DNA of 64,000 nucleotides from an uncultured Acidobacteriaceae bacterium (GCA_963831665.1 CAWHRG010000009.1:25534-89533); one strand, 5' to 3'. Shown: positions 9,344-41,837, counted from the first letter of the stretch. A program made the numbers and translations. Notes: generated by a model from the letters alone, not told the origin.

Positions 9344-9982
9344 GATTTTTTCTCAGGTAGTGGATTCGTATGGGCGTGTTCGCGGGCCAGCTGACGGGAA
9401 GGGCATTGATCGTAGCCGCAGACCTCACGCTGAGCGAGTTGGTGGAGGAGCCACTTGCGCTCTTCGTTGAGGGGTTCGGCGGCGACGACCTCGCGGCGGA
9501 GGTTGCCGAGGTCGGTGAGCCAGTCGCCGAGGTCGAGGGGGAGCTGGGCGTTGATCTCTTTGCGGAGGCGTTGGGCCAGGGCAGGGCTGGCTCCGGCGGT
9601 GGAGATGGCGATCTGCAGGTCGTCCGCGACGGACGACGGAAGGGAAGTAGAAGTCGCAGAAGGGTGGGTCGTCGACTGCGTTGCAGATGATGTTTTTTGC
9701 GGTGGCTTCGTGAAAGACGGCGCGGTTGACGGCGGGGACGTTGGTGGCGGCTACGACGAGAAAGTTTCCTGTGAGATCGCCCTCTGTGTACTCACGCTGA
9801 TGCCATTCGATTTCACCGACGGCGGCGAGGTTGGTGATGCGCTCAGTGGCTTTAGGGGAGATGACAGTTACTTTGGCGTGCGCTGCTTGCAGGGACTCGA
9901 TCTTGGATTCAGCCAGATGGCCAGCGCCGATGACGACGCAAGGGCGAGCGGCGATCTTGAGGAAGATAGGGAAGAGATCCAT
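9340..9982 (-). CDS. Precorrin-2 dehydrogenase / sirohydrochlorin ferrochelatase (CysG N-terminal / Met8-like), +1 frameshift near 9622
   Basis: FPIFLK...VVIGAG, CNAVDDPPFCDFYFPSVVRRG continues as DLQIAISTAGASPALA after removing one base; stop overlaps the cobA GTG. Confidence 0.88.
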
Positions 9983-10136
9983 ACGATTAGGCTACTACTC
10001 TCCGGTTCGGATGGCAGGGTTCGTCACGGGGATTCGAGGGGCAAGGCATAAAAACCGTAGTTGCTCTCTCGATTTTGATATGAGACGGAGGGCCAGGGAG
10101 TTTGTCTGGGCTCTCGATCGTTTTAATCCGACGGAC

Positions 10137-10172
10137 GTCACATTTTCTGTGGTATCGCCACAGAAGCGTGAC
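10137..10172. promoter_or_regulatory. Inverted repeat, candidate PadR operator
   Basis: GTCAC-ATT-TTCTGTGG-TATCG-CCACAGAA-GC-GTGAC about 30 nt upstream of padR. Confidence 0.5.
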
Positions 10173-10202
10173 ATACTGATGTGGCCATAACACAGGACGG
10201 AT

Positions 10203-10553
10203 ATGACGCAGACAAAACTTGATCTTTTGCAGGGGACGCTGGACCTGATGGTGTTGCAGACGCTGGCGAGCATGGGGTCGCTGCATGGATATGGGATTGC
10301 GCGGCGCATTGAGCAGGTGAGTGGGGACGAGGTGCTGCTGAATCAGGGAACGATCTATGCGTCGCTGGTGCGGCTGCAGCAAAGGAAGTGGATTTCGGCG
10401 GAGTGGGGCACGTCGGACAACAACCGTAAGGCGAAGTACTACTCGATTACGAAGGAAGGACGCGGACAGCTGGCCAAGGATGCTGCTTACTGGCGCAGGC
10501 TGACGAGTGTGATGGGACGGGTGCTGTCGGCGTCGGCCGGGGAGGAGATGTGA
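10203..10553 (+). CDS. PadR-family transcriptional regulator (acidobacterial type)
   Basis: LLQGTLDLMVL, HGYGIARRIEQ, NQGTIYASLVRL, NNRKAKYY. Confidence 0.92.
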   Translation: MTQTKLDLLQGTLDLMVLQTLASMGSLHGYGIARRIEQVSGDEVLLNQGTIYASLVRLQQRKWISAEWGTSDNNRKAKYYSITKEGRGQLAKDAAYWRRLTSVMGRVLSASAGEEM

Positions 10554-13196
10554 TGAACCTGCAAGAGATCTTTGGTCGGGTGAGTTCGTTCTTTCATAAA
10601 CCGGAGCGAGACGCAGAGCTGGATGCGGAGATGCAGGCACACCTGGAGATGGCGACCGACGAAAATCTGAAGTAAGGGGATGGATCCGAAGGAGGCGCAG
10701 AGGCAGGCGTTGATTCGGTTCGGCGGTGTGGATCGGGCCAAGGAGGAGCAACGTGCGAGCCGTGGGCTGCCGTGGCTGGATGTGTTGCTGCAGGACCTGC
10801 GTTACACGCTGCGGACGCTGAAGAGAGATCCGATGTTTTCCGTGATTGCGGTGCTGATTCTGGCGCTTGGAATTGGGGCGAACATTGCGGTGTTCAGCGT
10901 GGTAAATGCGATCCTTTTGCGGCCGCTACCGTTTCACGAGCCGGATAGGCTGGTGTGGATTGCTCCGGCGGATGCGAATGGATTGTCGGCCTCGACGTAT
11001 TCCGCAGATGCGTATGATGACCTGCTGGCAATGAATAAGTCGTATGAGGATGTGACGGGATATTTTGCGTTTTCGACGAACGACAACTTTAAGTTGACGG
11101 GACATGGAGATCCGAAACCGATAACGGGCATCTCGGTTGCACAGAACTTCTTCACAACGCTGGGCGTGACGCCGGAGCTGGGACGCTCTTTTACGAAAGA
11201 GGAGGCGGTTAAGGGTGGGCCGTCAGTGGTGATGCTGTCTCACGCATTTTGGATGCGGCAGTTTGGCGGGGATCGCGGGATGATCGGGAGGCCGATCACT
11301 TTAAATAATGCACCGGTGACCGTGGCGGGTGTGCTGCCGGATACGTTTGATTTTGGCGCGGTGTTTTCGCCCGGGACGAAAGTAGATATTTTTTTACCGG
11401 TGGTGATGGATGAGATTCGTCCCTGGGGAAATACGCTGGCGCTGATTGGGAGGCTTAAGCCGGGAGTGAGCCTGGCGCAGGCGCAGGCCGAGGCGAAGGT
11501 ACTGTTTCCCAAGTTTTACTGGAGTAAAAAATATCCGGAATCGGTCGGTGGCTATACGGCGAGGCCGTTTGAACTGAAGCAGTATGTGAGTGGCAAGTTG
11601 CGGCGGTCGCTCATTGTGTTGTGGTGTGCGGTGGGGATGATTCTGCTAATTGTGTGCGTGAATCTCTCGAACCTGATGTTGGCGCGGGCTGCGGCACGGA
11701 ATAAGGAGTTTGCGCTGCGTAGCGCTTTGGGTGCAGGGCGCGGTCGATTGGTGCGGCAGCTTTTGACGGAGAGCATGGTGTTGGCGGGGATGGGGGCTGT
11801 GCTGGGACTAATGCTGGCGTTTGGGATTACGTCGTATCTTGCGCACCAGGGGTCGCTTGCGTTGCCGTTGCTGAGCAGTGTGAGGGTCGATGGAGCAGCG
11901 CTTGTGTGGACGGTTGGGATCAGCGTTGGTGCGGCTGTGTTGTTCGGGTTGTTGCCGGGGCTGAAGATGTCGGCAAGCAATCTGCAGGAGGCGCTGAAGG
12001 ACTCTGGGCCGGGCGTGAGCGATGGGCGGAATCACGAGCGGCTGCGTTCGGCGCTGGTGATCTCGGAGGTAGCGCTGGCTTGCGTGCTGCTGGTCGGTGC
12101 GGGTTTGCTGCTGCGAAGCTTTATGCGGGTGCTGGATGTTGATCTGGGCTTCCAGCCTTCGACTGCGGCTGCGATCAAGGTGGACTATGATGACGGCGGC
12201 AAGTCGGAGAAGAGGGATGCAATTCTGCAGGAGATGATTCGGCGGGTGAGTGCTATTCCGGGGGTCGAAGCGGCGGGGGTATCGGACAATCTGCCTCTGG
12301 AACGCAATCGTGGGTGGGGTGGGCCACGAGCGAAGGGAAAAACCTACAAGGATAACGAGGTTCCGGGGGCGTTCGTTTATATCGTGTCGCCGGGGTATGT
12401 GAAGGCGATGGGGATGCGGCTGCGTGGACGTGACTTTGGATGGCAGGATGATATGAAGGGTGAGAGTACGGTCATCCTGAATCAGAAGGCGGCGAACTTT
12501 GTTGCGCCGGGTGAAGACGCGGTCGGGAAAATGGTCCTGATTAATAAGAAAGAAGTGAAGGTGATCGGCGTGGTTGCGGATGTACATGAGACCAACGTCG
12601 AGGGCACGGCAGGGGAGCAGATGTATCTGCCAACGATGCGTGATGAGTGGGGGCCGGATGGCGCGGAGCTTGTGGTGCGGTCGAAGCTGCCGCCGGAGCA
12701 GCTTGCGGGTAGTGTGATGCGGACGTTGCGTGAGATGAATCCGAATCAGGCGGCTGTAGAATTTCGGCCGATACAGGGGATTGTGAATCGTGCGGTATCG
12801 CCGAGACGGTTCTTTGTGCTACTGGTGGGTGCGTTTGCGGGGCTTGGATTGTTTCTGGCTTCGTTGGGGATTTATGGCGTGATCTCCTACTCGGTGACGC
12901 GGCGGACGCAGGAGATTGGCATACGGATGGCGTTGGGAGCGTCGGCGGGCAGGGTACAGGCCGGAGTGATTGTGAAGACACTGCAGTTGGCAGCGATGGG
13001 AATTGTCGTTGGAGTTCTGGCGTCGATGCTGGTGGCCAATATGATCGCATCGCTTCTGTTTGGGACTGCGCCGACGGACCCGGTTACGTTTCTGGCGATG
13101 GTTCTGGTGCTGGCATGTGTTGCTGCGGTGGCCGGGTATATTCCGGCCAGGCGGGCTTCGCGGATCAATCCGATGGTGGCTCTGCGAAATAACTGA
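10553..13196 (+). CDS. ADOP-type ABC transporter permease (MacB/FtsX duplicated), +1 frameshift at 10673
   Basis: ATG overlaps the padR stop; DAELDAEMQAHLEM N-terminus joins MDPKEAQRQA after removing T10673; ends ASRINPMVALR. Confidence 0.9.
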
Positions 13197-13318
13197 TTCG
13201 CAAGATTTATTCGCCGGGGAAGAGGGAGATGGGTAGCTCCCTTTTTAATGATCATGGGTGTCGCACCGCATACAATCGGGCTGAGAAGAAAGTCCTCGAG
13301 CCAGCCGAGAGTGCCCTC

Positions 13319-14704
13319 ATGCCCTACAGTCATACAGTCCGCGGCGTAAAGCACACGTTTGCGGATCTGCGATCGCTTCTGGCGCGGGCCTCGCCTATGC
13401 GCTCGGGCGACCAGCTTGCCGGCATCGCAGCGGCAGACGCCGAGGAGCGTGTGATTGCGCAGATGACGCTGGCTGAGCTTCCATTGAGCGCCTTTCGAGA
13501 GGAAGCCGTCGTTCCCTATGAAAGCGATGCGGTCACACGGCTGATCTTCGACGCGCAAGACAAGGACGCATTTGCGCCGGTTGCCGACCTTACCGTGGGT
13601 GAGTTGCGCGACTGGCTGCTCTCGGACAAGTGCACCGGCGAACGGATTGCGGAGCTGGCACCGGGTCTGATGCCGGAGATGGCCGCCGCGGTTTCCAAAC
13701 TGATGCGGGTGCAGGATCTGATTTATGTCGCGCGGAAGATCTCTGTTGTAACGCGGTTTCGTACTACGGTCGGCTTACCGGGAAGGCTTTCGACGCGGCT
13801 GCAGCCGAACCATCCGACGGACGATCCTGTTGGCATTGCGGCCAGCATGCTCGACGGTCTGTTACTTGGTTCCGGTGATGCAGTGATCGGCATCAATCCG
13901 GTCTCGGACAACGTGGCTACGGTGACCACGTTGCTGCAGCTGATGGATCATGTGCGTATACGCTACGGGATCCCAACGCAAAGCTGCGTGCTGGCTCATG
14001 TCACGACGCAGATGGAGGCGATGCGGCGGGGCGCGCCGCTGGATCTGCTCTTTCAGTCGATTGCCGGCACGGAGGCTGCGAATACGTCGTTTGGCGTTAG
14101 TCTGGAGGTGCTTGACGAAGCGCTCGCGATGGCCAGGGAGCTGAAGCGTGGCGGCATCGGCGCTGAGACTGGCGGCGAAAACATCTTCTACTTTGAGACG
14201 GGACAAGGGAGCGCTCTCTCCGCCAATGCGCACCATGGCGTCGATCAACAGACGCTGGAAGCGCGCGCGTATGGCGTTGCGCGGCACTATCGGCCGATGC
14301 TGGTTAACACGGTGGTGGGCTTTATTGGTCCGGAATATCTATACGACGGCAAACAGATTCTGCGAGCCGGGCTGGAAGACCATTTCTGCGGCAAGCTGCT
14401 GGGCCTGCCGATGGGATGCGACATCTGCTATACCAACCACGCGGAGGCCGATCAGGACGATATGGATGCGTTGCTGACTATGCTGGGCGCGGCCGGGGTG
14501 AACTACATCATGGGTGTGCCGGGCGCCGACGACATTATGCTGAACTACCAGAGCACGTCCTTTCATGATGCGCTGTATCTTCGCCGGCTGCTTGGGCTGC
14601 GGCCCGCTCCGGAGTTTGAGGCGTGGCTGGCAAGCGATGCATGCCGACAGCTCCACTCGATAGGACAACCCGGAGCACTGCTGCCTGCGCTGGGTTCCGT
14701 ATGA
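13319..14704 (+). CDS. eutB: Ethanolamine ammonia-lyase large subunit
   Basis: RSGDQLAG, RLQPNHPTDD, YFETGQGSALS, CDICYTNHAEADQDD. Confidence 0.95.
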   Translation: MPYSHTVRGVKHTFADLRSLLARASPMRSGDQLAGIAAADAEERVIAQMTLAELPLSAFREEAVVPYESDAVTRLIFDAQDKDAFAPVADLTVGELRDWLLSDKCTGERIAELAPGLMPEMAAAVSKLMRVQDLIYVARKISVVTRFRTTVGLPGRLSTRLQPNHPTDDPVGIAASMLDGLLLGSGDAVIGINPVSDNVATVTTLLQLMDHVRIRYGIPTQSCVLAHVTTQMEAMRRGAPLDLLFQSIAGTEAANTSFGVSLEVLDEALAMARELKRGGIGAETGGENIFYFETGQGSALSANAHHGVDQQTLEARAYGVARHYRPMLVNTVVGFIGPEYLYDGKQILRAGLEDHFCGKLLGLPMGCDICYTNHAEADQDDMDALLTMLGAAGVNYIMGVPGADDIMLNYQSTSFHDALYLRRLLGLRPAPEFEAWLASDACRQLHSIGQPGALLPALGSV

Positions 14705-21175: not shown

Positions 21176-24100
21176 TTACGGGTAAAGGAGATAGGCCTGA
21201 CGGCGCTGGCGGAAGGCGTCGAGATCAGGCCTCCACGAGGCTGAGATCGTTCGCGGATCCTCGTTATTTTTGAGCGACAGCATGGTGTTGACGCTGACGA
21301 TAAGGGGATCTGTCTTCGCAAGGTTGAACTGGGTCGGATAGAGGCGCTGGAGCGCGCTGATGATCTCGATGCCTAACTCGGGTGAGTCGAGGGCGTTGCG
21401 GTCTGTGAGGGTTAAGGCGATGCCGGGGATGGTCTTGCCGTGCGAGGGATAGTGGTTGCTCGTCTTCGATGACGGCGAAGGTGGTGGGTGAGAAGGCGAC
21501 GCCTGGGATGTTGCGGCTGGTGAGATAGGCAGCGAGGGCCTGGGGCGTCGATGTAGGGCGCGCCGATCTGCTCGAAGGGCTTGTCTGTTCCGCGGCCTAC
21601 GGAGACGTTGGTGCTGTCGAGCATGCCCAGGCCAGGATAGAGGGTGGCAGCGGTGACGTTGCGGAGATTTGGGCTGGGGTTGGTCCAGGGAAGGCGGGTG
21701 TCGTCGAAGAACTGGCTGCGCGTCCAGTGCTGCATGGGGACGACGGTGAGGGTGGCATTGAGAGGGAGTTGAACGTTAGGAGAGGTGGCGGCGGGGTGGC
21801 GGTGTTCGCCGTTGATGTAGCGGGCGAGTTCGCCGAGAGTGAGGCCGTGGCGGAGCGGCAGCGGCATGTAGTTGATGTAGGACTCGCGTCCCGGGTCGGA
21901 GACGGGACCCTGGACAGCGATGCCGTTGATGGGGTTGGGGCGGTCGAGCAGGATGATTTCGAGGTTGTGACCTATGGCTTTTTCCTTTGCGGCGGCTTCG
22001 AGGAAGTAGCCGACGACGGACTCGTAGGTGTAGAAACGGACGCCTGCGTCCTGTATGTCGATGACAACGGCGTCGAGGTCTTTGAGGGATTCGTGGGTGG
22101 GGCGGCGGTCGGAGTTTTTGGGGCCATAGAGGCTGATGACGGGGAGGTGGGTTGTGGGGTCGGTATCGTTGCTGACTCGGGCAGTGTCTTTTGCTCCGAA
22201 GATGCCGTGTTCGGGGGAGAAGAGGGTCTTGAGCTCCACCTGCGGGATGGAGTGATAGAGGATGTCGATGGTGCGATGTCCGGTGCTGTCGAGGCCAGTC
22301 TGGTTGGTGAGGAGGCCGATGCGGAGGTGATCGTTATGGCCTTGGGCGGCGGCGAGGAGGGTGGCGAAGTGAGTGGATTGGAGGACGTCAATGCCGGTTT
22401 GGGTGGCTGGGGTGGGACTTGCCGCATCGGAAACAGTTGTTTCGAGTGGCGTGGAGCAAACGGAGAGGCCGGGGCATCCTTCACAGTGAGTGCAGCTACA
22501 AGACCAGAGGCGTTGTTCGGTTGCTGCATCAAGGCCGAGAGCACGAGCTGCTGCGGTGGCTACCTGACCGCGCAGGGCAGAGATGGGTGGTGCGCCGCGG
22601 GGATAGATGGCGTTAGAGAGAAGAATGACATAGGTGTTGGAGACGGGGTCGATCCAGAGGCTAGTGCCTGTGAAGCCGGTGTGGCCGAAGCTGCCGTTGT
22701 GAGTCTGAGTTGCGATGGGGAATATCTCTCCGCGTGGGCGTGAGAACGCGGTGTTGATATCCCAGCCGAAGCCTCGGGTGGCGACGCCGGTGGTGGTTTT
22801 GCCGTCAGGTGTGAAGATGGTGGCGCCGGATTGCGCTGTGGCTGGCTGCTGGGGCGTGGTCATCAATTGCAGGGTGGATTGCTTGAGGGGGAACGGGCCG
22901 GTGTTGTGGAGGAGCTTGTCGAGGAGGGCCTGTGCGAAGAGGCTGATGTCGGCGGCGGTGGAGAAGACCCCTGCGTGGCCAGCTACTCCGCCCATGCGGC
23001 GGGTGGTGGGGTCGTGGACTGTGCCGCGGAGGAGGTGGTCGAAGTTGGGATTGGTTTCGGGGGTGCCTTCGTTGTCGTGGGCTGTGGGGGCGACGTTTTG
23101 AATGCTAAGGGTATTCCAAATGCCCAGGACCGGCGCTGCACATCATCGTGTACATCTCGTGTGATGCCAGATGCGAGCTCGATTGCTGATCCGGATACAT
23201 CATGAGGTCCGCAGCCCTTGGTGAAGGCGTGGAACGTAGTGTGAGTCATCTTCAGGGGAGTGAAGATGTGCTGCTCGGCATATTCGTCGAGAGGCTGGCC
23301 GCTGAGTTTTTCGACGAGAGCGCCGAGAGTGATGAAGTTGATATCCGAATACTTGAAGGTAGTGCCGGGCTTTGATTCGAGCGGAGACTCCATGGCGCGA
23401 CGGATGCCTTCGGCCTTGTCGGGTGCAGTGAGTCCCCAAGGGTCTTTGAGGTCAACGTCTGCTGGGAGGCCGGAGTAGTGGGTGAGTAGTTCGCGAATGG
23501 TGACGTTTTCTTTACCGTTAGCTGCGAAGGCGGGGAGGTATTTTGCGACGGGGTCGTCGAAGTTGTATTTGCCCTGTTCGTAGAGCTGCATCATGGCCGT
23601 GGCGGTGGCGAGGCATTTGGTGAGGGAGGCCATGTCGAAGATGGTGTCTTCGGTCATCGGCTCGGCGGGTGACTGGTTTGCCGTCTAGGCCGGGTTCGCC
23701 GGCTAGCTTACGATCGCCGTACGCTTGTTCGAAGACGACTTTGTTGTTGTGGCCTATGAGGACTACAGCGCCGGGAAGTTTTTTTGCAGCGATGGCCTGA
23801 TTGATCAGCGTCGAGACAGGAGAGAAGTCGGGTGCGGCGGTTGAGCTTTGTGACGCTACGGACGAAACACGGGGGTTCTTGGCTCCGCGCAGAATGACAG
23901 GCGTTTGAGATTTGAGGGGTAAAGCGCAGACGAGCAAAATAATTGCTGCGATACCGGCAGTTTTTGCGGCGTGTTGTTTGCGGAAGATCAGGCTGGCGAT
24001 GCTGCCTACGGCGAAAGTCACGAGAGAGCCGATAAAGACGTACCAGGTGAAGGCTACTTTCGGGATGACGAATCCGGAGTTGACGGTGATGGCGTGAGGT

Positions 24101-25473
24101 TGGAGCCACAGCGCCATGTTGAGGGCGAAGCCGGTGATCATGCCTATGATTGCTCCGGTTTGCGTGGCATAGCGGGTTAGGGTGCCGAGAAGGAAGACTC
24201 CGAGCAGAGCGCCATAAGCTACGGATGCGATGGAGAGGCCTATTTCTACGACGTGGCCTTTGCCTCCTGCGTGGATGCTGTAGACGGCGACTGCAAAGAG
24301 AATGAAGGCCCAGACGACGGTGGAGGAGCGAGAGATCATCATGCGTTCGCGATCATCAGCTTGCGGGCGGAGATGCATGTAGAAGTCTACGACAGTAGTG
24401 CTGGAGAGTGAGTTAAGCGCGGCACTGAGATTGGACATCGCCGCGGCGAGGATTGCCGCAATAAGCAGGCCCGCGATGCCGACCGGCATCTGCTGAACGA
24501 TGAAGCTGGGGAAGATTCGGTCGGCGCTGGCGAATGTGGTTGGGTGCAGGCCGTAGAAGACGTAGAGGCCCGCGCCGATCAGAAGAAACAGTGTGAACTG
24601 AAGGAAGATGATGGCTCCGCTGGCAAGGAGAGCGATGCGTGACTCGCGGAGGTTGCGGGCGGCGAGCATCCGCTGGACCATGAGCTGATCTGTGCCGTGT
24701 GAGGCCATGGTGAGGAAGGTTCCACCGATAACGCCTGCCCAGAAGGTGTAGTTCTGGGTGAGGTTGAACGCGAAGTTGAAGAGACGAAACTTGCCTGCGG
24801 CTGCGGCTACAGCGTGAATCTGCGACCAGCCGCCGGGCACATGAATTCCGAGTGTGGAAATTGCAACGATGGTTCCACCGATGTAAATGAACATCTGGAT
24901 GACGTCGGTCCAGATAACGGCAGTCATTCCTCCTTCGAAGGTATAGAGCAGAGTTAGTGCGGAGATGATGGCGATTGAGAAGACATCTCCCGTGCCGATG
25001 GCGATTCCTACGACGATGCTGACGGCGAAGACGCGGACGCCTTCGGCCGCGGCGCGAGTGATGAGGAAGAGGCCTGCGGTGACCTTATGCAGGGTACGTC
25101 CGAAGCGCTGGTCGATCAACTGATATGCGGTCAGCATGCGTCCCTGAAAATATTTGGGAAGGAAGATCGCGGCTACGACGACGCGCCCGATCATGTAGCC
25201 GATCACAACCTGGAGGAAGCCGAAGTTCCCGGCAAAGGCAACGCCGGGGATGCTGATGATGGTTAGTGTGCTGGTCTCCGCCGAGACGATGGAGAGGGCG
25301 ATGGCCCACCAGGGGATGGTCTGATCGGCGAGAAAATAGCTGCGCAGAGATCGGGAGTTAGGGTCTTTTCCGCCGCGGAAGCGGAGGCCAAAGAGGGTGA
25401 TGCCGACAAGATAGACGACGATGAGCGCGAGGTCGAAGGTGTGGAGGTGTGTCGGAGGCGCAGCAGCAAGCAT
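21176..25473 (-). CDS. Fusion: sodium:solute symporter + beta-lactamase-like serine hydrolase + NamZ/DUF1343 exo-beta-N-acetylmuramidase-like domain (four frameshifts)
   Basis: SSS motifs (SIVSAETS, GTDQLMVQR); SxxK in FDMASLTK, YSDINF, GHTGFTG; NamZ-like IGLLTNQTG, LFSPEHG, DIQDAGVRFYTY, WTNPSPN. A net 2-base correction gives 1432 codons. Confidence 0.8.
23855..23900 (-). repeat. REP-like repeat copy D, translated in frame as PVILRGAKNPRVSSV
   Basis: GTCATTCTGCGCGGAGCCAAGAACCCCCGTGTTTCGTC aligns with the intergenic copies (GTCATCCTGAGCG...GAAGGATCCCTGTATTTCGTC). Confidence 0.65.
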
Positions 25474-25542: not shown

Positions 25543-26181
25543 CTAGCTGACGAGGTGGCCCATCTTCTCGCGCTTGGTTTGCAGGTAGCGCTCGTTGGTG
25601 GGTTCGGAGGGAACCTCGGCTGAGATGCGTTCCACAACCTCGATACCTGCCTGCTGAAGCGCTTCGACCTTCTCAGGGTTGTTGGTGATCAGCCGGACCT
25701 GCGTGAGGCCGAGTTGCTTGAGGATCTCGGCGGGAAGTTCGAATTCGCGACAGTCGGCTTTGTAGCCCAGCTGGAGATTAGCTTCGATAGTGTCGAGCCC
25801 CTGGTCCTGAAGCTCGTAGGCGCGAAGTTTGCCCATAAGCCCAATGCCGCGGCCCTCCTGCTGCTCGTAGAGGAGAATACCTGCACCTGCATCCGTAATG
25901 GTGCTGAGGGCGAGCTCCAGTTGCTGACGGCAGTCGCAGCGAAGAGAGTGAAAGACGTCGCCTGTAAGACATTGAGAGTGAATGCGAACGATCGGAGGCG
26001 CGCTATGAATATCTCCGTGGACGAGGGCGACAGCCGACTCAATGCGGATAGCCGGGGCAGGGATGTTGTCGTTACATCGCTCTGGATTGTCGACAATTCC
26101 TTCGAAACCAAGGATCCGGAAGTGGCCCCAGCGGGTCGGAAAGTCAGCGTCGGCTACCTTGCGAACTTCAGAGAACGGCAT
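25543..26181 (-). CDS. ribA: GTP cyclohydrolase II
   Basis: VRIHSQCLTGDVFHSLRCDC, QEGRGIGL, LITNNPEK, YLQTKREKMGH; ATG at 26181 lies 6 nt after TATAAT. Confidence 0.95.
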   Translation of the reverse strand: MPFSEVRKVADADFPTRWGHFRILGFEGIVDNPERCNDNIPAPAIRIESAVALVHGDIHSAPPIVRIHSQCLTGDVFHSLRCDCRQQLELALSTITDAGAGILLYEQQEGRGIGLMGKLRAYELQDQGLDTIEANLQLGYKADCREFELPAEILKQLGLTQVRLITNNPEKVEALQQAGIEVVERISAEVPSEPTNERYLQTKREKMGHLVS

Positions 26182-26341
26182 CGTTTGATTATACGGTTTC
26201 ATATTCTGAGCCCTGTAAGTGTCGATAGTTTGTAAAATCTTTCAATTATTAGATGTCCGTGTCCGCGATTCGGACGTGCCAATGTTCGTCACGATTTGCA
26301 CGACCTTCAGGGCTGCCTTTCCCCATCAATACTTCTTCGAA

Positions 26342-27319
26342 CTAGTTTTCGGGCTGCCGTGCCGCAGTTCCCGGTGCACGACGAGGCCTGCGTGGCTGGC
26401 TTCTCTTCTCCAGAATCTCGTTGAATTCAGCGCGAGACATCTTCAACTTCTCTGGATGAGCATCGATCCACTTTGCCAGAGCGTCATATTTTTGCGGTGT
26501 CCATCCGCCTTCGAATTCGGCCCCATTTTTGCCTGTTTTGTTCAGTTCGAAGTTGAAGGCGTCCTCCAGATTGGTGAACTCTGCCGAACTGATTGCGGCT
26601 TCGGCCAGGATTGCGGGAATAAAGATAACCCCGTCGGTCTTGGCCAGAACAAGATCTCCGGGAAGCACAATCGCTCGACCGATTCGTACGGGTGAATTGA
26701 TGGCCGTCAGCGTCATGTCCGCCCACGCCGATGGATCATAGCCTCGGTAGAACCCATTGAAATTCGGTATTTCGCGATTCTCTTCCTGGTCGCGGATGCC
26801 GGCATCGAAGACGAATCCCGTCTGAGTATGCGCTGCAATTCCGTTTCCGAGATTAGATCCGATCAGCGTGCCTTCTATGATCTTTCCAAAACCGTCGGCG
26901 ACATAGACATCGCCGAGCTGCAGTTCATTGATCGGCCAACTATTGTTGCCACTCACTCTGCCCTCTGCCTTGCCCTCAGCGGCGATTGCCTTCGCCATGT
27001 CTGGCCGCAACGGCATATATTGAGCCGTGAGCGCACGGCCCGCAAATGGCTTCTCGATGTGCAATGCCTGCCATCCGCCATCGTACTGACATCGATAGCC
27101 CTGTTCACGCAGGTAATCCCATACATCCTCGATCGAAACATCGATTGCCCGCTTGATCAGATCGTCGGATATCTTCGGGCGGCCATCGGGGAACCGCTCG
27201 CCCTTCCAGTCCGATGTATAAAACATCATCTGTTCCTTCGTCATCTTCACTTGAGACAACGCAGGCATTGCAGACGCTACAGTGCAGCCCAACACCGCAA
27301 CCAATATCAAGTTCTTCAT
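26342..27319 (-). CDS. RraA / HMG-aldolase-like family protein with signal peptide
   Basis: GRALTAQYMP, GDVYVADGFG, GIRD, AIVLPGDLVLAKTDGVIFIP; Sec-type N-terminus. Confidence 0.8.
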   Translation of the reverse strand: MKNLILVAVLGCTVASAMPALSQVKMTKEQMMFYTSDWKGERFPDGRPKISDDLIKRAIDVSIEDVWDYLREQGYRCQYDGGWQALHIEKPFAGRALTAQYMPLRPDMAKAIAAEGKAEGRVSGNNSWPINELQLGDVYVADGFGKIIEGTLIGSNLGNGIAAHTQTGFVFDAGIRDQEENREIPNFNGFYRGYDPSAWADMTLTAINSPVRIGRAIVLPGDLVLAKTDGVIFIPAILAEAAISSAEFTNLEDAFNFELNKTGKNGAEFEGGWTPQKYDALAKWIDAHPEKLKMSRAEFNEILEKRSQPRRPRRAPGTAARQPEN

Positions 27320-27390
27320 TACAAAACTCTCCTTAGAAATCTGATGAATAGTGCAGAATTGCGCTGCGTTTATCTACCAAACATGATGCA

Positions 27391-28767
27391 CTAGCTGAAA
27401 AGAGCGTCGTCAAATGATTGCTTCTCGTCCCACATGGGCGTCGGCTCGAAGTATCCTGTGCCGGGCTTCAAGTGTCGCTTAACCTCGTCATCATTGAGCG
27501 AGATGCCCAGCCCAGGTGCATCCGGAACTTTGATATAGCCCTTGTTGATGATTGGCTTCTCAATCCCCGTGACCAGATCCTGCCAGAACGGCACATCGAG
27601 CGAGTGGTTCTCAAGCGCAAGGAAGTTTCGAGTCGCAGCGGCGCAGTGAACGTTCGCCATGCAGGCCACTGGCGTGCCCGCAAAGTGCATCGCCATCGGA
27701 ACACCATTGCGGAAGGCCATGTCGCCGATCCTGTGCGTCCGTAGAATACCGCCGGAAGTCGAAAGGTCTGGATGGATCTTGTCCACGACATGGTTCTGGC
27801 ACAGATTTTCGAAGTCCGACATCTCGTAGATATCTTCGCCCGTGAGCGTCGGCGTGGGGCTGGCTATCGTGATCTGTTTCAGCAGATCGGTGTAGAACCA
27901 GGGAATCACGTCCTCGATCCATTCCAGGTTGAACTTCTCATACGCTCTGCCTAGACGAATCGCAGACTTGACCCCAACGTGGCCAAGATGGTCCATCGAC
28001 AAGGGCATGTCATAGCCGATGTTCTCCCGCACTGCCGCAACATACTCGCACAACCTGTCGATACCCTTGTCCGTGACCTCCGTCGCGATAAACGGATGAG
28101 GCTGATTGCGCAGCTCCCAATTGCTCAGACCCGAAGGCTGCATCACCGTATTTGGAATTCCTTCCAGCGTATCGATGCCCAGATCCATCTTCATCCACGT
28201 CAGGCCCATCGCTACGCGTTCCTTCGCTCGCCGTCCATACTCCTGTGGGTCTTTCGACTCAGTGGTATCGGCATAGATGCGGATAGTGTCGCGCCACTTG
28301 CCCCCAAGCATTTGATAGATCGGGCAGTTATAAACCTTGCCGGCGATGTCCCACAGCGCCATCTCAACCGCACACACACCGCCTGCCTGGCGCGAGACAC
28401 CGCCGAACTGTGAGATCTTGTCAAACAGAAAATCGATCCGCAGCGGGTTCTCTCCGACGATGCGGCTCTTCAGCACCATTGCATATTGGTAGCCGGCAAT
28501 ATCACGCACTTCGCCCAGACCATACACACCCTGGTTGGTGTCGATGCGAATCAGAGCGCAAGGACTTGGACCCGGCTTGACGACGATCGCATAGCGCATA
28601 TCGGTAATCTTCAGGGTCGATGGGCTGGAGTGCAGATTGACGTTTTGAATTGCCGGCTGCGCTTCCGCCCTCTCAGCAACGCTACCGAACAGGCCACCTG
28701 CCAGCATGGCCATGGAAGACTTCAGAACACCGCGGCGGTTGAATTTGGTGCGGTTGTAGTCCGACAT
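27391..28767 (-). CDS. Mandelate racemase / muconate lactonizing enzyme family (enolase superfamily), Tat signal
   Basis: RRGVLK; VEMALWDIAGK, IYADT, WIED, TGED, AMH, LENH. Confidence 0.88.
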   Translation of the reverse strand: MSDYNRTKFNRRGVLKSSMAMLAGGLFGSVAERAEAQPAIQNVNLHSSPSTLKITDMRYAIVVKPGPSPCALIRIDTNQGVYGLGEVRDIAGYQYAMVLKSRIVGENPLRIDFLFDKISQFGGVSRQAGGVCAVEMALWDIAGKVYNCPIYQMLGGKWRDTIRIYADTTESKDPQEYGRRAKERVAMGLTWMKMDLGIDTLEGIPNTVMQPSGLSNWELRNQPHPFIATEVTDKGIDRLCEYVAAVRENIGYDMPLSMDHLGHVGVKSAIRLGRAYEKFNLEWIEDVIPWFYTDLLKQITIASPTPTLTGEDIYEMSDFENLCQNHVVDKIHPDLSTSGGILRTHRIGDMAFRNGVPMAMHFAGTPVACMANVHCAAATRNFLALENHSLDVPFWQDLVTGIEKPIINKGYIKVPDAPGLGISLNDDEVKRHLKPGTGYFEPTPMWDEKQSFDDALFS

Positions 28768-39190: not shown

Positions 39191-41837
39191 CTATTCCGAG
39201 CGAAGAGCCTCCACCGGATTCACCGAGGCCGCTCTTCGCGCCGGGAAATAACTCGCCAGCAACGCCGACACGCCAAGCAGCACCGCCACCGCCACCAGCG
39301 TAGGCATATCCCACGAGCGTATGCCGAACAGAAGCTTCCTCATCAAAGTAGCCGCAGCCACTGAGCAAACCAGTCCCGCAAATATACCCAACCCCGTCAG
39401 CCACCCAGCCTCTTTCAAAATCATCCGGTACACCGAACTCTTCTGCGCGCCCAGCGCCATCCTCACACCAATCTCACGAGTCCGTTGGCTCACCGAATAA
39501 GCAATCACTCCATAAAGCCCGACAACGCCGAGCAACAAAGCCATCGCTGCAAACCCACCCACCAGCCACGCCGATGAGCGATGCATATATGCCGTCTGCG
39601 AATCGTTGATTCGTTGATTCATCGTCGCCTGGGCAAAGACACCAATGCCGGGATCAATCTGATGAATCGCCGCCGTCAGCGTCGGCAGAATCGTCTTCTC
39701 ATCCTGCGACGTCCGCACCACCAGCGAGACGTACGTATCGGCGTTCTGATTGAGCGGATCATACTCCGCCGGCCATATCTCCGAGTCCAGCGATCCCTCC
39801 TTCACATCGTCCACAACGCCGATGATCTCCCGTAACGATTTAGGCGTCAGCTCCGTGTCTCCAAACTTCTTCCCCACAGGATCTTCTCCAGGAAAGTACA
39901 GCCTCGCCAGCGCCTTGTTGATCACGGTCACTCCCGGCTTCGACGCATCTTCTTCATCCGTGAAGAACCGCCCCTTCACCAATTTTGCCTGCAGCGTCTT
40001 GAAGTAATCCGAGCTGACCTCCCGTTGATTCACCTCGTTGTGCTCGCCGTTGTACGGCTTACCAACAAACCGTATCCAGTTCGTGTTGCCATTACCGCTC
40101 ACTGGCAACTGGGTGGAGATTCCTGCAGATCTCACGCCAGGCAAACTCGCAGCGCGACTTAAGATCTGTCTCTCAACCTCCACCACCTGCGGATCTTTGG
40201 GATAGGTAAGCTCCGGCAGCGAGATCTGCAGTGTGGCCAGATGATCAGGCTGGAACGCGAGCTCCACATGCAGCAGTCGATAGAAGCTCTTCCCCAACAG
40301 CCCGGCACCGACCAGAAGCACCACAGCAATGGTCAACTCCAGCACCACAAGATTCGCCCCAAAGCGCCGCCACAACGTCCCCGCGCTTCCACGCGCCCCA
40401 TCCGCCAGCCCTTCCCGCATCGCCGTTAAAAGGCACGCGCATAATCGGAGTCACCGCAAACAGCACCGCAGCAATCAGCGAGATCGCCCCGGTAAAGATC
40501 AGCATGTGCGCATTCAATCCAATCCCGCTTAGATAAGGCATGTACTCCAGCATGTCCTTCGAGATAAGCCTGCTGAGCAGCGTAATGCCGCCATAGGCAG
40601 CCGCTAGACCAAGCGCACTCCCACCCGCAATCAACACCACACCTTCCGTAACAAACTGCCGAACCAATCGAGCAGGCGAAGCCCCCAACGCGCCGCGAAC
40701 CGCAATCTCCCGTCGTCGACTCTCCGATCGCACCAGCAACAAACTTGCTACATTCACACACGCAATCAACAGCAATAGTCCAGCCCCGCCCAGCAACACC
40801 AGCAATAGCGGCCGAATATCCCCGACAATCTCCTCATAAAGTGGCATCACGCTGGCTCCCTGATCACGATTGGAGCCCGGATATTGAATCTCCAACTGTT
40901 TTGCAACGCCGGTCATGTCTGCCAGCGCCTCTTGTACCGTCACGCCATCCTTCAACCGCGCCACACCATAAAGATTGTGGCAACTCCGCCTTTTTTCACA
41001 GCTATTCAGCGTGTGAAGTGTCGCCCAAAACTCTGCCTTTCCTTTTGGCGCAAACTGAAAACTCGCGGGCAATACCCCAATGATCGTGTTCGGAATCCCA
41101 CTTAACTTAACCGTCTGCCCGATGACATCTTTTCTTCCACCGAACCGCTCCTGCCACGTGTCATAGCTCAAAATCACTGTCTCTGCAGCCCCTGGCTGAT
41201 CCTCGCCAGCATAGAAGTCGCGGCCCAGAACAGGCTTCACGCCCAGCACCCGAAAGAACCCATCGCTCACGCGTGCAGCCGGAACCGGCTCAGTTCCTGT
41301 GGGCGTATTCAGCAGATAGCCATTTCCCGTGTAGACCTCCATCGCGCTGAAGACCTTATTCATCTTCTTCCAGTCGACATAGTCTTGATACGAGAGATTC
41401 GATCGCGGAAACATCGCCGCCCGCTCATTTACATCCACTAGCCGATTCGGATCCCGATAGGGAAGCGGCTTGATCAGCGCAGCATCCACAAACGCAAAGA
41501 TCGCAACACTAGCGCCAATCCCCAGCGCAAGCATCAAGACTGCCGTAACCGTAAACCCCGGACTTCGCCGCAGTTGACGAATCGCAAAACGAAAATCCTG
41601 CCAAACCGTCTCCACACGAAACCCCACAATCTCATGGCTCTGTTCTTTCAGCCGAGCACCATTTCCAAACTCCCGCATCGCTGCACGATGCGCCGCCTCC
41701 GGACTCATACCTTCATCGCGCAACTCTTTCTCCTTCTCATCGCGATGAAAACTCATCTCCTCCTCCAACTCGCTATCGAACTTCTCGCGGCGAATCAGCA
41801 TCCCGAGCTTCTTGAAGAAACGAGTGACAGAGTCCAT
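39191..41837 (-). CDS. ADOP-type ABC transporter permease, +1 frameshift at 40428-40431
   Basis: ELEEEMSFH, QDFRFAIRQLRRSPGF, RTREIGVRMALGA, AASVNPVEALRSE. Confidence 0.9.

Follow-up and report, generated by a model that had tools for sequence, protein, structure and literature searches.

In Bacillus subtilis, the exo-beta-N-acetylmuramidase NamZ works with NagZ and AmiE to digest peptidoglycan from its non-reducing end (PMC8054146), and the murQ-murR-murP-amiE-nagZ-namZ genes provide for the exo-lytic release of N-acetylglucosamine (GlcNAc), peptide and N-acetylmuramic acid (MurNAc), their uptake and the MurQ step (PMC8054146, PMC5061867). In Tannerella forsythia, the murT-murK-murQ genes combine MurNAc import outside the phosphotransferase system (PTS) with a kinase, MurK, of the BadF/BcrAD Pfam family and with MurQ (PMC5790795), and the enzymes NamZ1 and NamZ2 are periplasmic and have A|Q signal-peptide sites (bioRxiv 10.1101/2021.12.02.470905). 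In Escherichia coli, yfeW, encoding PBP4B, follows murQ-murP (PMC5061867). Here we compare with these systems a gene at positions 21176..25473, on the minus strand, of a 64,000-nucleotide (nt) stretch of DNA (the window) from an uncultured Acidobacteriaceae bacterium (GCA_963831665.1 CAWHRG010000009.1:25534-89533). The gene joins a sodium:solute symporter (SSS), a signal-peptide-like helix, a beta-lactamase-fold serine hydrolase and a NamZ module.

We consider this gene, with a probability of about 0.72, to be an orthologue of a conserved Acidobacteriaceae fusion of a symporter with two enzymes for periplasmic MurNAc release and import, in which the frame breaks of the present assembly are consensus errors. 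The reading starts from what can be observed, namely domain content, motif integrity, topology, the fusion's conservation and derivation from neighbouring genes, and the gene neighbourhood; the enzyme activities, the transported substrate and the fate of the product, in one piece or cut, are inferred from these. Its parts and pathway are already known from B. subtilis amiE-nagZ-namZ, Tannerella murTKQ with NamZ1/2 and E. coli murQP-yfeW. The novelty lies in the architecture, in which an amidase-like and NamZ periplasmic module is joined to a secondary transporter via a retained signal peptide in one Acidobacteriaceae clade, and we found no published account of such a fusion in the literature on NamZ in connection with symporters, on DUF1343 in Acidobacteria or on acidobacterial peptidoglycan, necromass and MurNAc. 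The features on which the argument draws are as follows.

21176..25473, minus strand: whole gene, SSS symporter, signal-peptide-like helix, beta-lactamase-fold hydrolase and NamZ (read-through product of 1430 amino acids, aa).
23983..25473, minus strand: sodium:solute symporter core, aa 1-497, with 13 predicted membrane helices (PF00474, TIGR00813, SiaT 5NV9, AlphaFold2 (AF2) model, basic loops).
23914..23982, minus strand: junction, comprising the n-region RKQHAAK and the h-region TAGIAAIILLVCALPL, predicted as a 14th membrane helix (homology to stand-alone precursors, AF2).
23836..23913, minus strand: c-region (KS|Q) and variable linker predicted to be disordered (predicted local distance difference test score, pLDDT, ~30).
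22528..23835, minus strand: AmiE/PBP4B-like beta-lactamase-fold serine hydrolase domain (PF00144, NF002968).
23613-23633, 23334-23354 and 22666-22689, minus strand: regions of the hydrolase motifs SLTK, Y-S-D and H-T-G, respectively.
21179..22398, minus strand: NamZ module, NamZ_N and NamZ_C (PF07075, PF20732).
22198-22221 and 21574-21603, minus strand: regions of the NamZ motifs PEHG and GRGT, respectively.

Reading starts at an ATG at 25473 and ends at a TAA at 21176-21178, and Pfam places SSF, Beta-lactamase (in two pieces), NamZ_N and NamZ_C along the gene in this order, with the SSF match at aa 46-448 of the first open reading frame (ORF). That ORF (25473..23518) is open all the way from the symporter, across the basic loop RKQHAAK, the hydrophobic helix TAGIAAIILLVCALPL and the linker, into the first ~50 residues of the hydrolase; because it spans both parts, the symporter/hydrolase junction needs no repair. 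The initial annotation had proposed just such an uninterrupted frame, and a single 195-nt contig of run X4, from a comparison with 4-5 public metagenome runs at the gene and at each break (their library type, 'DNA?', is not on record), crosses the junction of the symporter and the extra helix (23895-24089) free of gaps. Further downstream, the frame that the annotation had treated as simply repairable takes five single-base corrections, after which the product has 1430 aa and no internal stops, rather than the 1432 codons first counted.

Membership of the first part in the SSS family (TC 2.A.21) is supported by PF00474 (138.7 bits; cut-off 22.8) and TIGR00813 (215.7 bits; cut-off 184). The closest solved structure is SiaT of Proteus mirabilis, a Na+/sialic acid symporter (5NV9; E=7e-43; aligned residues 14-451), which has the same SSS fold of 13 helices; of its Na-site residues, Ser342, Ser345 and Asp182 are kept (here S347, S350 and D190) and two are replaced (S343 by N348 and S346 by A351). 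The aligned Na-site residues are invariant in 122 sequences, as is E66. SiaT differs in having neither the extra helix nor fused enzymes, and its substrate residues Thr58, Ser60, Thr63, Gln82 and Arg135 correspond to E66, S68, T71, Y93 and A143. Because Thr58, Gln82 and Arg135 are unmatched, the protein is not an orthologue of the SiaT sialic acid transporter. Reading the substrate from the SiaT residues was likewise uninformative, as these contacts are not conserved, so the assignment of MurNAc as the imported substrate is a prediction from other evidence, taken up below.

The hydrolase domain is recognized by PF00144 on two pieces of its frame (166.1 and 45.6 bits). Its best NCBIfam model is NF002968 (PBP4B/YfeW), which gives 153.6 bits with an intact orthologue (P0003) against a cut-off of 385, and 118 and 46 bits with the two pieces from the genome itself. 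The likeness to the E. coli murQ-murP-yfeW arrangement, in which PBP4B is the product of a MurNAc-operon gene (PMC5061867), has its limits: there PBP4B is a separate protein, E. coli lacks NamZ, and the acidobacterial score lies far under the equivalog cut-off. A link between AmiE and PBP4B through the hits of the PBP4B model in B. subtilis was set aside, because the hit list does not show which of them passes the cut-off and has no entry for E. coli. The closest chains in the PDB are esterases and DD-peptidases. The SxxK serine reported initially is present as SLTK, and an HTG motif follows; the second motif reads Y-S-D instead of Y-x-N. The NamZ module matches NamZ_N (239.8 bits) and, on two frame pieces, NamZ_C (45.4 and 62.9 bits), both above cut-off, and its best PDB matches are 4K05 and 4JJA. 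The Glu of its PEHG motif is E1087 and the Arg of GRGT is R1293, which would correspond to the putative catalytic Glu92 and the cleft Arg279 of the B. subtilis enzyme BsNamZ (PMC8054146). Across the 122 sequences, which include the window's read-through product and stand-alone orthologues, SLTK, Y-S-D, H-T-G, PEHG and GRGT are all invariant. This gene is the only NamZ copy in its genome; we take the family to be CAZy GH171.

More than 120 clusters of 1350-1460 aa came back from a search with the read-through protein; they cover ~100% of the query and contain all four Pfam domains, and their source names say only 'SSS family transporter'. Isolates are among the carriers, namely Edaphobacter bradus, E. 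modestus, E. paludis, E. dinghuensis, Tunturiibacter species and strains KBS 146 and TAA 166, and in isolate DNA the three parts lie in one frame. The triple architecture of symporter, hydrolase and NamZ that the initial annotation had put forward is thus borne out and, given the intact 1350-1460-aa orthologues in isolates, is no indel artefact. In the nearest relative (L001, 88% identity) the gene is intact and encodes 1391 aa, and the order of its surroundings matches that of the window (RraA-like, MR_MLE, RibA, fusion, PhoU and GMC oxidoreductase).

The fused form is nevertheless restricted. In a survey that sampled 201 Acidobacteriaceae genomes, 179 had homologues, with an open frame of at least 1250 aa in about a dozen and in the window's own genome; the remaining genomes have a symporter of 480-550 aa and a hydrolase-NamZ protein of 780-950 aa, and where both are shown in the listed places the split genes are adjacent and on the same strand. 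The initial annotation had held that a stop at the junction, or relatives that always encode the parts separately, would make the fusion an indel artefact: the junction contains no stop and in close relatives the parts are fused, whereas most of the family keeps them separate and the fusion is derived. In Terriglobus the gene order is SSS, DUF3738, hydrolase-NamZ, and in Bryobacterales a two-domain hydrolase-NamZ gene converges on an operon in which the SSS orthologue is paired with an APC amino-acid permease, which may import a released stem-peptide amino acid. The hydrolase-NamZ proteins and stand-alone SSS of other Acidobacteriota such as these are orthologous to the parts of the fusion (50-73% and 40-64% identity) and their linkage is conserved; they differ in being separate genes, and every hydrolase-NamZ protein has a cleavable signal peptide. 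Symporters encoded on their own extend only a few residues beyond helix 13, and hydrolase-NamZ proteins encoded on their own have ordinary Sec signal peptides at the N terminus (...SHA|QDF, ...AAS|QER). From these ends it follows that the fusion joined the cytoplasmic tail of the symporter to the signal peptide of the downstream gene; separate genes are the ancestral arrangement, and the triple fusion is a clade-specific derived state.

The intervening DUF3738 gene lies at 9401-10309 of locus L041 (Terriglobus albidus) and occurs also in loci L040 and L045. The overlap of the symporter orthologue and the APC-family permease as an operon was seen at 10700-13703 of locus L051 and at other Bryobacterales loci. 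Two contigs binned as Proteobacteria also have the fusion along with some or all of the neighbours typical of Acidobacteriaceae, one with GH20 and PhoU (L020, a Lichenicola metagenome-assembled genome) and one with GH20, NagA, kinase and PhoU (L021, a Rhodanobacteraceae metagenome-assembled genome); mis-binning seems more likely here than transfer.

The same symporter subfamily has been fused to NamZ independently at least twice more. One such protein (P0178, 913 aa, from a single Logan contig) is an SSS-NamZ fusion without the lactamase-fold domain. The other (P0204, 876 aa, from a cluster of 34 members, most of this same length, one of them named Candidatus Neomarinimicrobiota) has the reversed order NamZ-SSS, with an N-terminal signal peptide. 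The junction helix of P0178 has a lipobox-like end, LGGGC. In the NamZ part of P0204 neither PEHG nor GRGT is evident, for which reason that part may bind rather than cleave. A further protein (P0173, 840 aa) combines the same symporter subfamily with an HlyD-type membrane-fusion domain.

In the AF2 model of residues 1-560, which is of moderate confidence (pLDDT 65; predicted template-modelling score, pTM, 0.64), 13 helices are followed by a turn of four residues, then by the 14th helix (502-517) and a disordered linker. Helices are broken at 72-75 and 261-263, as are helices 1 and 6 of the LeuT fold, and the hydrophobic junction segment itself spans aa 505-520. A count of 12 helices from hydropathy alone had missed polar helices and was superseded by the SiaT alignment and the AF2 model. 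Positively charged loops after helices 1 and 3 (31-56 and 106-151) and the RKQHAAK turn fit an outside N terminus and an inside end of helix 13. Because the 14th helix follows this inward-ending helix, the enzymes are placed in the periplasm, in agreement with a signal-peptide origin; the hydrolases had initially been described as acting on external muropeptides, and in a diderm they face the periplasm instead.

Judged by its sequence features, the junction helix is best understood as the Sec signal peptide with which the hydrolase-NamZ protein once began, retained in the fusion. The n-h-c layout is present in all fused proteins. A Gln stands right after the h-region in 106 of the 120, preceded in 82 of these by A, G or S at -1, and AxA|Q is a frequent motif (examples of the junction are SANA|Q, SARA|Q and AWA|Q). 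The linker that follows is 38-97 aa long among orthologues and otherwise unconserved, and since the AxA|Q pattern is kept amid so variable a linker, cleavage by signal peptidase I may persist. The product would then be a polyprotein, cut into a 14-helix symporter and a free periplasmic hydrolase-NamZ protein, with the fusion coupling only synthesis, targeting and stoichiometry. We regard this as a serious possibility, a little short of even odds: to the complete n-h-c layout and the conserved Gln with its small neighbour can be added that the stand-alone orthologues look like cleavable Sec precursors (...SHA|Q, ...AAS|Q) and that the Tannerella NamZ enzymes obey the same A|Q rule (bioRxiv 10.1101/2021.12.02.470905), but a simple -3/-1 rule fits only 63 of the 106 proteins, the site in the window's protein (LKS|Q) is weak, the Neomarinimicrobiota NamZ-SSS protein lacks a cleavable junction and cleavage at an internal signal-like helix is not predictable from sequence.

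That non-cleavable junction of Neomarinimicrobiota makes permanent tethering viable as well. In such a transporter-tethered glycosidase, left uncleaved, amidase and muramidase would sit on the outer face of their own Na+ symporter and hand MurNAc to its pore, an arrangement that we put forward tentatively, at something like a one-in-three chance. The membrane tethering proposed by the initial annotation is accordingly one of two options, because the retained signal peptide supplies the helix that would hold the enzymes and yet so often keeps the AxA|Q site at which they could be released. Anchoring as a lipoprotein through a Cys in the h-region was considered and rejected, as the Cys is not conserved (P0003 has Gly). 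Within the linker, a segment of 30-39 nt (~23870-23899) has ~25 dispersed copies in the genome at ~90% identity, found by blastn-short; a fuzzy regular expression for the linker-repeat pattern gave no match in the genome. The linker peptides VPHLRDGLIVAKVG and VILSEAKNPRIS of orthologues, at the same spot, presumably derive from repeats as well, the genome check having covered the window's stretch. If this repeat reading holds, in-frame insertions of a repeat element are tolerated in the linker behind the signal-peptide helix.

In the present assembly the gene is interrupted by five frame changes, recognized from three-frame translation and alignment of orthologues near 23670, 23174, 23127, 21539 and 21458, with one surplus base each.

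23665..23675, minus strand: frame change 1, one base more than in relatives.
23170..23180, minus strand: frame change 2, one surplus base (protein homology).
23122..23132, minus strand: frame change 3, one surplus base (protein homology).
21535..21545, minus strand: frame change 4, one base more than in relatives.
21455..21463, minus strand: frame change 5, one base more than in relatives.

At 23670, 21539 and 21458, short metagenome contigs of ~97%-identical relatives lack exactly one base, and the orthologous DNA of L001 and L015 lacks the same single base. The sites near 23174 and 23127 fall in a variable loop without run coverage, where the basis is protein homology to P0001 and P0002; set against these two, the three window frames read ...SAIEL, then HLASHEMYTMMCSAG, then LGIWNT... 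across the middle sites. A repair with four junctions was rejected, since the alignment with P0001 and P0002 splits the middle junction into two.

These breaks very probably reflect errors in the consensus of a metagenome-assembled genome built from error-prone long reads, rather than gene decay; that the genome is of this kind is our inference from its contig number, size and completeness (9 contigs, 4.77 Mb, 94%). The competing explanation is a true pseudogene, in which all five insertions are real and NamZ-dependent peptidoglycan scavenging has been lost, and several points speak for it: the five breaks are concentrated in one 4.3-kb gene with ~6 kb of intact flanking genes, the sites are not long homopolymers, and the neighbouring kinase, GH20 and NagA genes have been lost at the locus in this lineage. 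Against it, every break is a +1 insertion, no piece of the gene has an in-frame stop or a lost motif, and 10 of the 14 substitutions with an assigned codon position between the window and a relative's contig fall on the third position (a hand count).

Breaks of this kind are moreover spread through the assembly. We scanned the genome with a codon-usage log-odds model for places at which the coding signal switches to another frame of the same strand long before a stop; the scan recovered the breaks of this gene and found 106 frameshift-like junctions genome-wide, with +1 changes at 42 of the 57 tight ones. Such junctions lie, for example, at C2:322733 (plus strand), C1:524497 (plus strand) and C2:893058 (minus strand). 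Those inspected divide what look like single conserved proteins: Pfam finds the catalytic domains of RNase E/G and the pro-domain of an S53 peptidase each on one side of the junction, and in our reading the opposite sides would be the missing halves and a third case would be a GT39-type glycosyltransferase. The ~100 similar breaks, RNase E/G and two more in the window included, argue against a true pseudogene. So does the behaviour of the gene elsewhere: it is frame-broken in 8 of 16 'MFD' metagenome-bin loci, which from their record names are probably Nanopore assemblies, compared with 3 of 27 other assemblies, and the shifts are mostly +1. That the genome has no other NamZ gene counts, too, among the reasons for regarding the breaks as artefacts.

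Reads from the strain itself do not reach the sites. Contigs of the exact strain in run X1 end before all five, and 31-mers of the exact strain across them, in either form, were absent from the public runs searched, which leaves room for a pseudogene. As only ~97%-identical relatives cross three of the sites, the reads cannot decide between error and decay. Decay is improbable on this evidence; it keeps a small share of the probability because the breaks lie so densely in this one gene and because exact-strain reads miss the sites. Most probably, then, the gene resembles a pseudogene only through assembly errors, a caution for readers of such assemblies. GC skew was dropped as a cause of error: the strong plus-strand skew of the gene reaches only the 15th percentile among the genome's genes, a comparison set contaminated by antisense shadow ORFs. 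Two other genes of the window, identified by reading their sequences, have an apparent +1 break, an ADOP/MacB-type duplicated permease between its halves (~40352-40363, minus strand) and a siroheme synthase of the NAD_binding_7 plus Sirohm_synth_M type (~9630, minus strand).

The neighbourhood of the fusion in relatives points to MurNAc/GlcNAc catabolism. A BadF/BcrAD kinase gene lies divergently upstream in 36 loci, GH20 occurs in 36 and NagA in 18, and MurQ and NagA adjoin hydrolase-NamZ in two loci (L048, L065). The window's own genome has, elsewhere, two MurQ genes above cut-off and BadF kinases, one BadF kinase and a MurQ standing together on contig C5. At 25543-28767 of the window, and in L001 and L015, genes for RibA, an RraA-like protein and an MR_MLE enolase-superfamily protein take the place of kinase, NagA and GH20. 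A role in peptidoglycan and MurNAc recycling, suggested in the initial annotation, gains support from PBP4B as the best hydrolase family, the intact NamZ motifs, the MurK-family kinase and the nearby GH20, NagA and MurQ. The comparison with Tannerella extends to non-PTS import, a BadF/BcrAD-family kinase, MurQ and periplasmic NamZ; the acidobacterial SSS is likened to Tf_MurT through its gene association with kinase and MurQ rather than by sequence comparison, and Tannerella differs in that transporter and enzymes are separate genes. As in B. subtilis, a beta-lactamase-fold enzyme accompanies NamZ, with the same NamZ Pfam domains and the PEHG and GRGT motifs. There, in a monoderm, the proteins are separate and secreted, uptake is by the PTS (MurP) and NagZ is a GH3 enzyme, whereas in Acidobacteriaceae the amidase-like enzyme and NamZ form one periplasmic polypeptide, fused in one clade to a Na+ symporter, and GH20 stands in for NagZ.

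Taken together, domains, context and independent fusions support a predicted periplasmic, exo-lytic trimming of peptidoglycan coupled to MurNAc import. In the proposed sequence of steps, a GH20 hexosaminidase, encoded nearby in most relatives, would strip terminal GlcNAc from periplasmic peptidoglycan fragments, the serine hydrolase would remove the stem peptide and NamZ would release free MurNAc; the attached or co-made symporter would import MurNAc with Na+, and a BadF/MurK-type kinase, the etherase MurQ and NagA would pass it into amino-sugar metabolism. The strongest argument that the symporter takes up MurNAc is that its subfamily has been fused repeatedly to NamZ, whose product MurNAc is.

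The same architecture could serve another cargo (GlcNAc, anhydro-MurNAc, D-lactate or a stem-peptide amino acid), or the hydrolase could be a DD-peptidase or an esterase. The substrate-site residues unlike those of SiaT leave room for such a cargo, as do the GlcNAc kinases within the BadF family, the equally good fit of GH20 and NagA to GlcNAc and the pairing of the Bryobacterales SSS with an amino-acid permease; for the hydrolase, the top family, PBP4B, is annotated as a penicillin-binding protein, and the nearest structures are esterases and DD-peptidases. We nevertheless judge these variants unlikely, although they carry appreciable weight, because three independent fusions join this SSS subfamily to NamZ, whose only known product is MurNAc (PMC8054146), and because MurQ adjoins the module in L048 and L065.

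Several observations weigh against the reading of the gene as a functional fusion for MurNAc release and import. The hydrolase stays below the PBP4B equivalog cut-off (153.6 versus 385 bits) which, with its Y-S-D motif, means that it may be a peptidase or an esterase and not a MurNAc-L-Ala amidase. The sialic acid contacts of SiaT are lost in the symporter (R135 to A, T58 to E, Q82 to Y), and kinase, GH20 and NagA are absent from the locus in the window's lineage, L001 and L015. Five breaks in 4.3 kb contrast with a density of about one per 45 kb detected by the scan genome-wide, and exact-strain reads cover none of the five sites.

The public name 'sodium:solute symporter' conceals two enzyme domains. 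A secondary transporter joined to periplasmic enzymes via a retained signal peptide is rare, and suits questions on cleavage and on the speed of tethered capture. If correct, the tethered form would define a MurNAc importer family of Acidobacteriota, and Candidatus Neomarinimicrobiota would have reached the same solution on their own, with the parts in reversed order. Much organic nitrogen and carbon is stored in soil as peptidoglycan, Acidobacteriaceae are abundant there, and to our knowledge the route by which they use muramic acid has not been described. As 'Rosetta stone' evidence, the fusion and its independent counterparts suggest a testable substrate, MurNAc, for an uncharacterised symporter subfamily found in most Acidobacteriaceae.

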